DNA of 64,000 bases, taken from positions 73,855-137,854 of the forward strand of contig URLJ01000001.1 in assembly GCA_900548675.1 (NCBI GenBank). The letters run 5' to 3'. Positions within the stretch are counted from its first letter, which is position 1, and each line of letters begins with the position of its first letter. The DNA is from an uncultured Mollicutes bacterium. Its GTDB lineage: Bacteria; Bacillota_I; Bacilli_A; ML615J-28; CAG-313. The position numbers and the translations under genes are program-made. Below, piece after piece: positions 50,836 through 55,492 of the stretch. The notes under the pieces are model-generated. The model worked only from the letters and a program-made list of their open reading frames with translations. It ran no database searches and was not told the origin of the DNA.

Positions 50836-50906
50836 CAACGTTTGACTTTTAGTACAAATTCATGTATAATTATATTATAGAAAAAATAAAGAAAGGGTTG
50901 ATTTAA

Positions 50907-51212
50907 ATGGGTAATAGAGATAGAATAATTAGATGGGACGACGAAAACAATGCACACAGATATTTTGTTAATGGCAGATTAGTAGGATGTGGATATGACT
51001 TTTTAGAAGTATTCGAGAAAGCTGCACCATTCTTACACATTGGCAGAGAAATAGTAACTCGTCAAGTTTGTCTTTGTGATATTGACAGCGACTTATCAGA
51101 TACAAAAACAGGTATGATAGTAGATTTCTTAAACGAAGCTAAAAGATTAACAGAATTTCAAGAAAAAGCATTATACGAATTTGACTTCACATCTTTGTTA
51201 GAATTGATATAA
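50907..51212 (+). CDS. hypothetical protein (101 aa)
   Basis: RBS AAAGGGTTGA. Promoter at 50845-50875. Confidence 0.4.
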   Translation: MGNRDRIIRWDDENNAHRYFVNGRLVGCGYDFLEVFEKAAPFLHIGREIVTRQVCLCDIDSDLSDTKTGMIVDFLNEAKRLTEFQEKALYEFDFTSLLELI

Positions 51213-51219
51213 CGCACAT

Positions 51220-51248
51220 TTGACTTTTAGTTAAAAGTGTTATATAAT
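51220..51248 (+). promoter_or_regulatory. promoter of the tRNA/ncRNA operon (TTGACT-N17-TATAAT)
   Basis: -35 at 51220-51225 and -10 at 51243-51248. Confidence 0.55.
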
Positions 51249-51280
51249 ATTATTATAGAAAATAAATAATATTTTCTTAG

Positions 51281-51612
51281 CGATGAAAACCACCGTATCA
51301 GTGGCTAGTCGCACACAAATCCTTAGGTCAGTAATTAAGCGCAGTCATGATGGGCTTAGTGAAGGATAAGGTTGACTGTTAGTGAACGAGGACTATCAAG
51401 TTATCAGTAGGAAGAAACTGTTCCCAGGTTGTTGGAATCGGGGTGAGAGAACCAACCAGACCGAAACTGAAAGAGGCTCCGCACCTATGCGTTAAATGGC
51501 GATAGCAGAGATTAGTTATCTGCGAGTAAGAGACATATTATTTAATTAGTGCACACTCTCTTGCGTGCGGGGTTTGTATCATTTAGAACTATAGTCGCCC
51601 CGCAATTTATAT
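51281..51612 (+). ncRNA. structured RNA with group-I-intron-like core motifs (R-like GAACGAGGACTATCA, S-like AGAACTATAGTCGCC); no exons recognised
   Basis: P7-like pairing between GACTA (51392-51396) and TAGTC (51592-51596). Many nested hairpins. Lies between the promoter and tRNA-Leu(TAG). No ORF. Confidence 0.3.
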
Positions 51613-51689
51613 GCATTAGTATGCAAACTGGCAAAGCAGCTGGTCTTAGAAACCAGTGTATGAAAGTTCGACTCTTTCCTAATGCACCA
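51613..51689 (+). tRNA. tRNA with anticodon TAG (Leu by codon table) but class-I architecture (5-nt variable loop)
   Basis: Acceptor GCATTAG/CTAATGC, A73, CCA encoded. Anticodon stem CTGGT/ACCAG around loop CTTAGAA. T-arm GAAAG-TTCGACT-CTTTC. Confidence 0.6.
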
Positions 51690-51757
51690 AATTATGGTTT
51701 GCGAGGCACCCATCGGTGAGAGCTGCACATCTCACATGAGAAAACCTCGGTGCATAT

Positions 51758-51844
51758 GCACCTTTGGCGGAATAGGCAGACGCGTGGGACTTAAAATCCC
51801 ATGGACGAGAGTCCGTCCCAGTTCGATTCTGGGAAGGTGCACCA
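51758..51844 (+). tRNA. tRNA-Leu(TAA), class II with long variable arm
   Basis: Acceptor GCACCTT/AAGGTGC. Anticodon stem TGGGA/TCCCA around loop CTTAAAA. Variable arm TGGACGAGAGTCCGT. T-arm CCCAG-TTCGATT-CTGGG. CCA encoded. Confidence 0.7.
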
Positions 51845-52002
51845 GCAGGGCGAACCCGTAACGTCCCTTTGCAAATAGAATATCGGGTGGTGTGGATAAG
51901 CGAAGCTACAATGCTCAATAATAGTAGTTCTTGTTATTTATTTTTTCGTATACCATTTGGGTATACAGAACGCGCGGCGTCGCAAGCGACAGCCGTTTAT
52001 AT

Positions 52003-52089
52003 GGGTCTTTGGGTGAGCTGGCTAAAACCGCCAGACTGTAAATCTGGTCTCTTCGGAGTACCCTGGTTCGAATCCAGGAGGGCCCACCA
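52003..52089 (+). tRNA. tRNA-Tyr(GTA) with long variable arm
   Basis: Anticodon stem CCAGA/TCTGG around loop CTGTAAA. Variable stem CTC-TTCG-GAG. T-arm CCTGG-TTCGAAT-CCAGG. Acceptor GGGTCTT/AGGGCCC. CCA encoded. Confidence 0.65.
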
Positions 52090-52095
52090 TTATAT

Positions 52096-52171
52096 TCGCG
52101 GGTGGTGTAATTGGTAACACGACGGACTTTGACTCCGTAGAGTGTTGGTTCGAGACCAGCCCCGCGAGCCA
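52096..52171 (+). tRNA. tRNA-Gln(TTG)
   Basis: U1-A72 acceptor TCGCGGG/CCCGCGA. D-stem GTGT/ACAC. Anticodon stem ACGGA/TCCGT around loop CTTTGAC. T-arm GTTGG-TTCGAGA-CCAGC. G73 then CCA. Confidence 0.65.
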
Positions 52172-52254
52172 CAGCTACGCAAGTAGCGAAACACACCCCT
52201 TTCTTTTGTAGGTCAGCTGTCTCGTGTAGACCTGACAGCTGGCTAATTTCAAAT

Positions 52255-52283
52255 TTGACTTTTAGTGTGAATTTTGATATAAT
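52255..52283 (+). promoter_or_regulatory. internal promoter TTGACT-N17-TATAAT upstream of tRNA-Val
   Basis: -35 at 52255-52260 and -10 at 52278-52283. Confidence 0.5.
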
Positions 52284-52306
52284 ATTATTATAGTAAAAGT
52301 AAATAT

Positions 52307-52382
52307 AGTCCGTTAGCTCAGCTGGTAGAGCATCGCCCTTACAAGGCGGAGGTCGTTGGTTCGAACCCAACACGGACTACCA
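52307..52382 (+). tRNA. tRNA-Val(TAC)
   Basis: Acceptor AGTCCGT/ACGGACT. D-arm GCTC-AGCTGGTA-GAGC. Anticodon loop CTTACAA. T-arm GTTGG-TTCGAAC-CCAAC. CCA encoded. Confidence 0.7.
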
Positions 52383-52550
52383 TTCGAGGATAACTAACTG
52401 GTCTCACCTCTTTAAAAATGAGAACTCTGCTGCGGAGCGCGTACCATCGCAGGGACAAATAAATTAGGCGGAGCAATGCCCTAAATGCTCTGAACAAATA
52501 TGGGCACTTATATAGCGGGGTGGAGCAGTTGGCAGCTCGCCAGGCTCATA

Positions 52551-53111
52551 GAAAATTGTGGCTCCATGTAGAAATACATAGATGAACTGTGGATGAATTC
52601 AGAGGAGGCTAAGTCTTTTGGAAAAGAAAATTATAGGTTATGATGATGTATATACAATAGATACTAATGGTATTGTATATAGAAATGGTAAACCAATGTC
52701 CCCAAGGGATAATGGTATAGGTTATCAGCAAATAGGATTGCGTTTAAATCGCAGACGATACAATGTTTATATTCACAGATTGGTTTGGGAAACTTTTAAA
52801 GGAGATATACCAAATGGATATGAGATTAACCATATAGACCATAATAAACATAATAATAACTTAGATAATTTAGAGTTAGTATCTCACTCTACCAATTTAA
52901 AAAAATCAGTAGAAAGATATGGATACTATGGTTCTATGAATAGACCAAAAGATATGCGAACTTTGAGCCAAGCCGAAGATACATCTTCGGAAGGTGCAGA
53001 GACTACTGGAGAGGTATAGTCCTCTTAATAACCAGTTTAAGTATCCACTACCTAAGTCGTAAGATATGGTAAAGACATAGTCCACTCTATAATGAAAATT
53101 ATAGGTAAGTA
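52551..53111 (+). mobile_element. group-I-like intron carrying an HNH homing endonuclease ORF
   Basis: R-like TTCAGAGGAGGCTAAGTC (52598-52615) and S-like AAAGACATAGTCC (53071-53083) could pair to form P7 (GGCTA/TAGTC). The ORF lies between them, and its RBS GAGGAGG (52602-52608) is embedded in the R element. Confidence 0.45.
52618..53019 (+). CDS. intron-encoded HNH homing endonuclease (TTG start)
   Basis: Layout typical of phage HNH homing endonucleases (HNH_3/NUMOD-like): conserved YIHRLVW, then EINHIDHNKHNNNLDNLELVSHSTN. RBS 9 nt upstream of the TTG start. Confidence 0.55.
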   Translation: MEKKIIGYDDVYTIDTNGIVYRNGKPMSPRDNGIGYQQIGLRLNRRRYNVYIHRLVWETFKGDIPNGYEINHIDHNKHNNNLDNLELVSHSTNLKKSVERYGYYGSMNRPKDMRTLSQAEDTSSEGAETTGEV

Positions 53112-53177
53112 AACCCGAAGGTCGTAGGTTCAAATCCTACTCCCGCAACCAATAGAAGATCATAGAGGTTGGTAAAA

Positions 53178-53459
53178 ATGGCAATTATCTATTATATAGA
53201 CAACAAAGCAAACTGGAAAGGATATGTTGGTTGTTCTAAAACTCCACTATCTCATAGATGGGGGAAACATAAATATTTATTAAGGCATAACCTACATTCT
53301 AACAAGGAACTGCAAGATGACTGGAATAAATATGGAGAGCACAGCTTTAGTGCTTTTGTTATAGAAACCTGCCCAGATAGTAAGATGCTAGAGAGAGAAA
53401 AGTATCATATAAACAGATTACAAACAAATGTCAGAGGGGTTGGGTACAACCAGAAGTAA
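53178..53459 (+). CDS. GIY-YIG endonuclease, catalytic-domain-only (93 aa)
   Basis: IYYIDNKANWKGYVGCS...R...KH...E...N is the classic GIY-YIG motif set. Starts 27 nt after the tRNA-Met 3' exon. No DNA-binding extension. Confidence 0.5.
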   Translation: MAIIYYIDNKANWKGYVGCSKTPLSHRWGKHKYLLRHNLHSNKELQDDWNKYGEHSFSAFVIETCPDSKMLEREKYHINRLQTNVRGVGYNQK

Positions 53460-54366: not shown

Positions 54367-54858
54367 ATGTGGAAATCGTATGATGATATATATGAGATAA
54401 GCACTGGTGGTAAGATAAGAAATAAGAAAAGTCCTGATAAGATATTAAAGACATATGTTAATAATTGTGGATATGAGAAATTCAAGGGCCACAATGTACA
54501 TCAGTATGTACATAGAATGGTAGCGGAGACATTCATACCTAATCCATCTGGTAAAGAACAAGTGAACCATAAAAATGGGGATAAGCTGGATAACAGGGCA
54601 GAAAATCTTGAATGGGTAACTCGTAGTGAGAACGTATCTCACGCTTATAAGTGCCTAGGAAGAAAACGTAGTTACTGTGGTTCAAAAGGACATAATGCTA
54701 AAAAGGTATATCAGTATTCATTAGAAGGTCAGCTCCTTACTACCTATAATTCGGTGGGTGCAGCTGCAGAAGCTGTCGGAGGTGCAAGTCCTAACATCAG
54801 CAGATGTTGCAATGGGCATATTAAAACATACAAAAACTTTGTATGGAAAAATGAATAA
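54367..54858 (+). CDS. HNH homing endonuclease (free-standing)
   Basis: YVHRMVAETF and NHKNGDKLDNRAENLEWVTRSEN follow the same pattern as the intron-encoded HNH. Own promoter TTGACG...TATAAT at about 54287-54320. Confidence 0.5.
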   Translation: MWKSYDDIYEISTGGKIRNKKSPDKILKTYVNNCGYEKFKGHNVHQYVHRMVAETFIPNPSGKEQVNHKNGDKLDNRAENLEWVTRSENVSHAYKCLGRKRSYCGSKGHNAKKVYQYSLEGQLLTTYNSVGAAAEAVGGASPNISRCCNGHIKTYKNFVWKNE

Positions 54859-54913: not shown

Positions 54914-54927
54914 AAAAAAAAAAAAAA
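54914..54927 (+). repeat. A14 homopolymer at the 5' end of an ORF-less transcript
   Basis: 14 consecutive A immediately after TATAATGGGAGAG. Confidence 0.7.
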
Positions 54928-55345
54928 TAGATCCCAGCTCCCTTAGCCTGATCCAGCTCCAAATCCCAGCTCCCACCTAAGGGGTTAGCTATGAGGGCGC
55001 AGCTCCAGATTGCTACCAGGGGATAGGTGGCAATGAATTATTTCCTGGGAAATATTTGCTAGCAAAAAATGGGTAGACTCCCCCCTCCCCTTCTTCTGGC
55101 AGTTAGATCTCATTACACGGCTCGGGTCTAACTATCGCCCACATAATTAATTTTTCTTTTCCTCCTTTCTTTATAATATAATTATACATCTTTCAGCTCC
55201 CAATAGTCAAGTATTTTTTGAAAAATTTTAGCAGCTCCCATTGCCCCCCACCTTCCAGCTCCCATAGCGCAGCTCCGGTAGGTAAAGCGCAGCTCCCACC
55301 CAGCTCCCAATAGGTGGCAATGCCAGCTCCCTGCTACCAAATTAT
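54928..55345 (+). repeat. CCAGCTCC(C) / ATAGGTGGCAA repeat island (the minus strand reads GGGAGCTGG)
   Basis: At least 10 copies of CAGCTCC and 3 copies of ATAGGTGGCAA in two blocks (54928-55010 and 55193-55345). Promoter-driven with no credible ORF; the track ORF 55182-55433 (-) is judged a spurious product of these repeats. Confidence 0.5.
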
Positions 55346-55492
55346 AGGTGGCAACACCTGATCTGATCCACCTTGACCGGATCTCTTGCCCTTGGGATAA
55401 TTTTTGCAATAAATTTTTAAAAAAGACTTGCATTTTACTCCATAATTTGATATAATTATATTGTAAATAAAAAAGAAAGGAAGAGTGGTAAA

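Follow-up and report, generated by a model that had tools for sequence, protein, structure and literature searches.

A conserved structured RNA in the leader of a tRNA operon of uncultivated gut phages

We identified a conserved folded structure in the + strand RNA of a phage tRNA operon, at a fixed position downstream of a promoter and upstream of the first tRNA gene. It spans 51257–51612 of the window (the whole 64,000-nucleotide stretch of DNA analyzed here), a length of ~356 nt, and its homologs measure 303–386 nt. With moderate confidence, we read this element as a stable, structured noncoding RNA that folds independently, forms the 5′ leader of the tRNA operon and would act through its loops; its existence, size and stability as an RNA are what we infer from sequence. 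The family was found neither in Rfam 15 nor in GenBank phage records. An initial annotation had described the region as an ORF-less RNA resembling a group I intron, with a P7 helix formed by R-like and S-like strings. The leader is very probably neither an intron nor a ribozyme of the group I type, and of the three possibilities listed in that annotation, a stable operon-leader RNA comparable to those of phage T4 fits best.

Genomic setting of the tRNA cluster

The window is a phage-like genome with ~30% G+C. Its large terminase shares 45% identity with that of Geobacillus virus E3 and is related to SPbeta-like phages, and the phage is a gut Clostridia-type phage. Across 51000–53000, where the G+C content climbs to ~41%, lie five tRNA genes and three near-identical sigma-70-like promoters. 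The gene that always follows the leader, tRNA(UAG) (51613–51689, + strand), has the anticodon UAG and is 77 nt long without a long variable arm. Besides this Leu anticodon it has a variable loop of 5 nt, A73 as its discriminator and a CCA encoded in the gene, and similar short genes are annotated as ‘tRNA-Leu(tag)’ in Cronobacter, Vibrio and mycobacterial phages.

The leader is preceded by a sigma-70-like promoter on the + strand (TTGACT-17-TATAAT, 51220–51248) that matches the consensus at 11 of 12 positions and is conserved in the homologs. We predict that transcription starts at ~51255–51257. The promoter is present as initially described, and so is tRNA(UAG), whose first nucleotide is 51613. 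This promoter belongs to a repeat family of four ~55-nt copies (50841–50895, 51219–51273, 52254–52308 and 55427–55481) of the form TTGACTTTTAG...TATAAT...TTATAG, with 64–76% identity to the reference copy, which suggests that one early or middle promoter class drives the repeat-bearing region. Two spacers between tRNA genes (51845–52002 and 52383–52513) are unusually long and G+C-rich, contain hairpins such as CGCGCGGCGTCGCAAGCGACAGCCG, and end in TTATAT right before the next tRNA; they may contain further small structured RNAs or processing signals. Farther downstream, a segment with only short ORFs (54927–55339) contains a cluster of short direct repeats based on CCCAGCTCCCA (families D2, D6 and D10).

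Homologs of the leader

Leader homologs fall into about eight lineages on uncultivated phage and MAG contigs, all from one clade of uncultivated gut phages. Gene order is the same in every homolog: an ORF of ~100 aa, the promoter, the leader, tRNA(UAG), and then further tRNAs. Searching with the 101-aa upstream ORF of the window (50907–51212) yielded many contigs identical over the element and a mosaic relative, L012. Further homologs were found in L015/L016, L017/L018 and L019–L021, in L027 and L030, whose leaders come from Clostridia MAGs, and in a microdiverse L030-type group together with L046/L047. A profile search with the ~100-aa ORF family extended the set to the much more distant L053/L054, L052 and L055. 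The element is carried by all 17 of the 17 distinct homologs, and no element-free allele was found among them.

The ORF family that accompanies the leader, always just 5′ of its promoter, gave 45 matches (E ≤ 0.001) when cluster representatives of public data, clustered at 50% identity, were searched. Most are proteins of ~100 aa, and family members precede the same tRNA cluster. An AF2 model of the protein (pLDDT 75) had no PDB fold match at E ≤ 0.001. Phages related to the window through a 232-aa neighboring protein (L031–L038 and Enterococcus phage H1) had no tRNA cluster, leader or ~100-aa ORF. BLAST against 50,697 GenBank phages left the leader unmatched, and only the tRNA part found matches, to short tRNA-Leu genes in phages of Vibrio, Cronobacter and mycobacteria.

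String searches were less productive. An exact scan of viral contigs for the 17-nt R-like string returned six loci (L001–L006) that we attribute to chance; all are in coding DNA, and neither tRNAs nor Rfam matches were found there. Scans of metagenome and genome contigs for the S-like pattern likewise gave chance matches (L022–L026, L028 and L029), with only L027 and L030 being real.

The mosaic relative bears on how the element evolves. L012 and the window share identical sequence in the upstream ORF, the promoter and tRNA(UAG), but the 5′ two-thirds of the L012 leader (L012:10351–10580, corresponding to window 51257–51502) is replaced by a version close to those of L017 and L027. This pattern indicates that recombination occurs inside the leader.

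Architecture of the leader RNA

Compared across homologs, the RNA is built from a 5′ core (stem A, an invariant junction and hairpin B), a freely evolving middle, and a 3′ domain in which hairpins C, D and E follow one another; all coordinates below refer to the + strand. The unit begins at ~51257, earlier than the start given in the initial annotation, and includes the 5′-terminal A/U hairpin H0 (51257–51277, AGAAAAUA/UAUUUUCU). This hairpin is present in most lineages, is extended on both strands to a 10-bp stem in the L030 type and in L053, and is missing from L052 and L055. The hairpin that follows it in the window, H1 (51280–51312, GCGA..UCGC), is variable, and other lineages have unrelated hairpins or none at this position.

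Stem A (51319–51373, AUCCUUA/UAAGGUU) encloses a variable insert of 4–41 nt. It is present in all five of the lineages tabulated, and its pairs 5–6 covary. The invariant junction GGUUGACU (51370–51377) lies between stem A and hairpin B and reads GGUUGAC in L053 and GUUUGAC in L052/L055. Hairpin B (51378–51397, GUUAGU/ACUAUC, loop GAACGAGG) holds the R-like string, and three of its six pairs covary (GGCAGU/ACUGCC, GAUAGU/ACUAUC and CGUAGU/ACUAUG). In L052/L055 the corresponding stem reads CAGAGU/ACUCUG versus UAGAGU/ACUCUA. The variable middle (51398–51502), which, like L052/L055, was aligned by eye, includes hairpin F (GUUGG at 51431–51435 with CCAAC at 51452–51456) and a GGCUCCGCACCUAUGCG... 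hairpin that is missing in several lineages.

In the 3′ domain, hairpin C (51505–51523, GCAGA/UCUGC) is closed by either an A-U or a C-G pair. Hairpin D (51526–51564) has an 8-bp stem, with four of its eight pairs altered on both sides among homologs, and a near-invariant 23-nt loop (51534–51556) containing the palindrome GUGCAC at 51549–51554. Hairpin E (51567–51603) consists of a 7-bp G+C stem with an irregular interior (ΔG −9 to −13 kcal/mol) and holds both the S-like string and the palindrome ACUAUAGU (51588–51595). An A/U-rich tail (51604–51612 in the window, 9–14 nt across homologs) abuts the 5′ end of the tRNA; it reads AAUUUAUAU in the window and UUCUUAUAU in most homologs. No conserved ORF is evident in the leader.

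Conservation and covariation

Conservation of the 3′ domain equals that of the tRNA beside it: hairpins C, D and E are 81–85% identical between the window and L030 or L017, compared with 79–88% for tRNA(UAG) between lineages, and block recombination, an exchange of the kind that L012 displays, could explain part of this conservation. The flanks of the domain reach 42–57%; identity is 55–58% in the 5′ part of the leader and 42–44% in the spacer 3′ of the tRNA. The flanking ~100-aa ORF retains 55–83% nucleotide identity, and its protein is 28% identical between the window and L030.

Hairpins C, D and E were paired in 99.2% of alignment cells across 14 distinct sequences, and 7 of their 26 pairs were altered on both sides, values reached by none of 500 shuffles; this covariation rests on few independent events within one phage clade. 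Control helices slid along the alignment had 0–2 double-sided pairs. The 110-nt 3′ domain folded alone into the same three hairpins, with a z-score of −3.6 that none of 200 shuffles equaled. The minimum free energy of the whole element was unremarkable (z = −1.2), and 11 of 100 shuffles folded equally well. Compensatory changes occur in at least five helices, and many conserved G.U pairs assign the structure to the + strand RNA. Covarying helices and conservation above that of the flanks are the generic hallmarks of a conserved structured noncoding RNA, and the leader has both. Our judgment that the leader is real derives from this comparative evidence, since neither the strings nor the whole-element folding energy rise above chance on their own; the S-like core TATAGTC, for instance, has 10 occurrences in the window where 7.8 would be expected.

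These data bear directly on the view that the region is a nonfunctional spacer or decaying intron remnant that is merely G+C-rich. The poorly conserved, indel-rich middle and H1, like the unremarkable folding energy of the whole element, are what such a view would predict. However, the 3′ domain keeps pace with the tRNA whereas the true spacer after the tRNA does not, helices change by compensation, and no lineage with the tRNA cluster lacks the element. We give this view very little credence, and the intron remnant raised as one possibility in the initial annotation is contradicted by purifying selection.

The leader and the group I introns of the cluster

Group I introns resemble the leader in size (~300–400 nt), in carrying short R-like and S-like strings, and in occurring in phage tRNA clusters. 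The S-like string AGAACTATAGTCGCC lies at 51585–51599 exactly as first described, and the R-like string GTGAACGAGGACTATCA is also present, at 51382–51398, 1 nt from the 51383–51399 originally given. Both resemble the RF00028 consensus and the true intron nearby, and GACUAU and AUAGUC can pair over 6 bp in the window. The same tRNA cluster is, moreover, populated by group I introns and homing endonuclease genes. On this reading, the leader would be a group-I-derived ribozyme or degenerate intron whose P7-like and J8/7-like parts support guanosine- or water-mediated cleavage beside the tRNA. We regard it as highly improbable on several grounds, and nothing positive speaks for the ribozyme suggested in the initial annotation, whose cleavage would help to define the tRNA 5′ end.

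First, covariance models did not recognize the leader as a group I intron. At gathering thresholds, Rfam 15 identified no family but tRNA, and RF00028, whose gathering score is 50 bits, returned nothing at E ≤ 10 on 51150–52500 or on the 386-nt input 51240–51625, the latter scanned with the laxest filters. The only non-tRNA entry at E ≤ 10 on 51240–51625 was a chance Bacillus-plasmid match (13.6 bits, E = 3.7). Homolog loci gave nothing with RF00028 at E ≤ 1, and homolog leaders matched no Rfam family at all. The same model matched 52853–53104, ~1 kb 3′ of the leader, with 40.8 bits (E = 1.8e-8), within an intron of tRNA-Met; the model is thus able to see group I introns in this cluster and sees none in the leader.

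Second, the proposed P7 is not maintained. The pairing that forms 6 bp in the window is reduced to three Watson–Crick pairs and one G.U pair in L012 and L017, the G of the would-be G-binding pair is replaced by A or C in most lineages, and the AGUC of the S-like string reads AACC in L053 without compensation, so the helix predicted in the initial annotation can form in the window and is uncompensated in the homologs. An alternative P7, UGACU with AGUCG, was also rejected: it is invariant in 14 sequences, and the same AGUC-to-AACC change in L053 is uncompensated.

Third, both strings belong to other helices. The R-like string comprises the loop and 3′ strand of hairpin B, and its changes are compensated in the 5′ strand of that hairpin and not in the S-like string, which is itself enclosed by the covarying hairpin E. 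In a group I fold, P8 precedes J8/7 and P9 follows P7′, with no helix joining those two flanks. An R-like string in hairpin B and an S-like string in hairpin E are therefore incompatible with the group I topology (P8–J8/7–P7′–P9). The 5′ side offers no better accommodation, because L030-type leaders have only H0 5′ of stem A, which leaves no room for P1–P5. P1, P3–P5 and splice sites were not evident in the leader.

Fourth, the leader differs from the introns in its distribution and surroundings. Genomes with 100% identity over the leader differ in whether they carry the tRNA-Met intron, whereas the leader element was present in all homologs and no element-free allele was seen. As the initial annotation had noted, no tRNA or protein exon halves are evident around the leader, and the downstream tRNA is intact. 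What group I introns have and the leader lacks thus extends from a covariance-model match through P7, P1, P3–P5, splice sites and exons to presence/absence polymorphism.

The intron itself lies in an apparent tRNA-Met(CAU) gene at 52514–53150, which is split after anticodon-loop position 37 by a group I intron of ~560 nt with an HNH endonuclease ORF (52618–53019) inside it; its 3′ splice site is located approximately. In L007 and L012, both of which match the window over leader sequence, tRNA-Met has no intron. The 3′ half of the window tRNA-Met (ACCCGAAGGTCGTAGG...) differs from the intron-less allele and would give two anticodon-stem mismatches. Two free-standing homing-endonuclease-like genes follow at 53169–53459 and 54367–54858, one GIY-YIG and one HNH with NUMOD1, the last assigned from Pfam matches on the homolog in L008. 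The block of intron and homing-endonuclease-like genes stands where the otherwise identical L007 has tRNA-Asn and tRNA-Thr. For annotation, the lesson is that R-like and S-like strings alone do not identify group I introns; the genuine intron of this cluster is elsewhere, in tRNA-Met.

Transcription, processing and possible regulation

Under the reading that we favor, a stable structured RNA, the leader would be transcribed from the promoter at 51220–51248, as its consensus match suggests. Its 3′ end would arise when RNase P cuts at 51612/51613 to release the 5′ end of tRNA(UAG), when transcription terminates at hairpin E and its tail, or in both ways, a proposal drawn from the anatomy of the locus and the established course of tRNA processing. 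The hairpins at its two termini should shield the RNA from exonucleases, and the molecule would most likely act as a stable RNA via the near-invariant loops of hairpins D and E.

The arrangement of promoter, leader and terminator-like hairpin suits a cis-regulatory leader equally well. An attenuator, riboswitch or processive-antitermination element would sense a signal or factor and control read-through past hairpin E into four tRNA genes. The anatomy is classical for Firmicutes, with a promoter, a long conserved leader, a G+C hairpin, the U-rich UUCUUAUAU tail and promoterless genes. In addition, the second tRNA promoter of the cluster, at 52255, manages with a leader of only ~20 nt, from which it follows that a long leader is unnecessary merely for tRNA expression. 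The features expected of regulation by read-through are less apparent. Inspection of leader alignments revealed no conserved antiterminator pairing, and one candidate, CUCCGCAC with GUGCGGGG, was rejected, being confined to the window and L012 with its hairpin missing from L017 and L030. There was no match to a T-box or other riboswitch. In most lineages a U-rich tail follows hairpin E, but the window tail AAUUUAUAU is a poor U-tract, and a simple terminator scan left hairpin E unflagged because its loop is larger than 8 nt. Conservation, moreover, favors the apical and large loops over the junctions. We consider cis-regulation rather unlikely on this balance.

T-box and attenuation leaders of Firmicutes provide the closest comparison for such a role, as they share with this leader the order of promoter, long structured leader, G+C hairpin with U-rich tail, and genes. 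They differ from it in that no T-box sequence, RF00230 or other Rfam match, or conserved antiterminator is present here, and in that T-box leaders precede aminoacyl-tRNA synthetase or biosynthetic genes, whereas this leader precedes tRNAs.

Palindromic loops and self-association

The loops through which a stable leader RNA would act contain self-complementary motifs that change in concert. In L053, the same alignment columns read UCGCGA in place of GUGCAC in hairpin D and GUUAUAAC in place of ACUAUAGU in hairpin E, four coordinated substitutions that leave each motif in perfect self-complementarity; the covariation of the palindromes rests essentially on this one divergent lineage. L042 and L048 carry GCUAUAGU, in which self-pairing is retained as G.U. 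The matching region of L052/L055 has UCGCGA together with CAAUAGCUAUUG, a palindrome of 12 nt. Palindromes overall are no commoner than in shuffles.

Self-complementarity could also reflect a function of the DNA, with GTGCAC, ACTATAGT and the inverted repeat at +1 serving as protein operators or recombination sites. Perfect palindromes and an inverted repeat at the transcription start site have typical operator shapes, and a small HTH-like ORF lies downstream of the leader (its homolog in L008 has a weak Fe_dep_repress Pfam match). The manner in which the motifs evolve speaks against this interpretation. The change from GTGCAC to TCGCGA alters the site wholly while leaving it self-complementary, unlike the evolution of protein sites; the L042/L048 variant pairs only as G.U in RNA; and the opposite strand would have A.C mismatches wherever the stems contain one of their many conserved G.U pairs. 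We judge a DNA-level function to be very unlikely.

As parts of an RNA, the two halves of each palindrome are adjacent and unable to pair intramolecularly without a loop, which suggests either intermolecular loop–loop pairing or tiny alternative hairpins. The motifs in hairpins D and E are thus suggestive of loop–loop contacts, either in self-association or in binding of a partner. For partners, no antisense targets of the D and E loops were found within the window. In each lineage the D loop could pair with the 5′ acceptor strand of the tRNA at 6–7 of 7 positions, an idea that is not backed by covariation. RNAcofold of single hairpins was uninformative. Among known RNAs, the HIV-1 dimerization initiation site forms a kissing loop with GUGCAC or GCGCGC. 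The leader resembles it in having a 6-nt palindromic loop (here GUGCAC) that is swapped in relatives for a CG-rich palindrome (UCGCGA); molecule and context are unrelated, and the likeness would be an analogy of mechanism only.

We tentatively raise the possibility, speculative at this point, that the leader represents the first member of a new class of self-associating phage RNAs, in which two contacts per monomer would yield dimers or closed homo-oligomers. An RNA of this kind would be made together with the phage tRNAs. The covarying palindromic loops offer a concrete and cheap prediction, namely dimer or oligomer formation.

Comparison with other phage RNAs

GOLLD and ROOL are large, ornate noncoding RNAs of phages and prophages that are often located beside tRNA genes and form RNA-only homo-oligomers (PMC12286853, PMC5737381). 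The leader is likewise a phage-borne, large, structured noncoding RNA adjoining tRNA genes. Its self-complementary loops hint that it might homo-oligomerize as GOLLD and ROOL do, although oligomerization is here a prediction from sequence. It has no Rfam match to these families even at E ≤ 10 and is smaller, at 303–386 nt, than ROOL (roughly 580 nt) or GOLLD (roughly 800 nt). OLE RNA also forms dimers or closed homo-oligomers, like ROOL and GOLLD.

The tRNA cluster of phage T4 encodes two stable RNAs, ‘species 1’ and ‘species 2’ (rnaC and rnaD), of roughly 120–140 nt, which are co-transcribed with the tRNAs and freed by tRNA-processing enzymes. These too are non-tRNA RNAs of a phage tRNA cluster; they are shorter than the leader and belong to a phage of another host clade, and a sequence relationship to the leader is not expected.

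Phage tRNA clusters have thus repeatedly come to host large structured RNAs, as GOLLD, ROOL and the T4 stable RNAs illustrate, and the leader described here would be a further, unrelated and compact example. Only ~100 nt of it are under strong constraint, its promoter is well defined and its 3′ end defined, and it would be a tractable model for such RNAs in infection.
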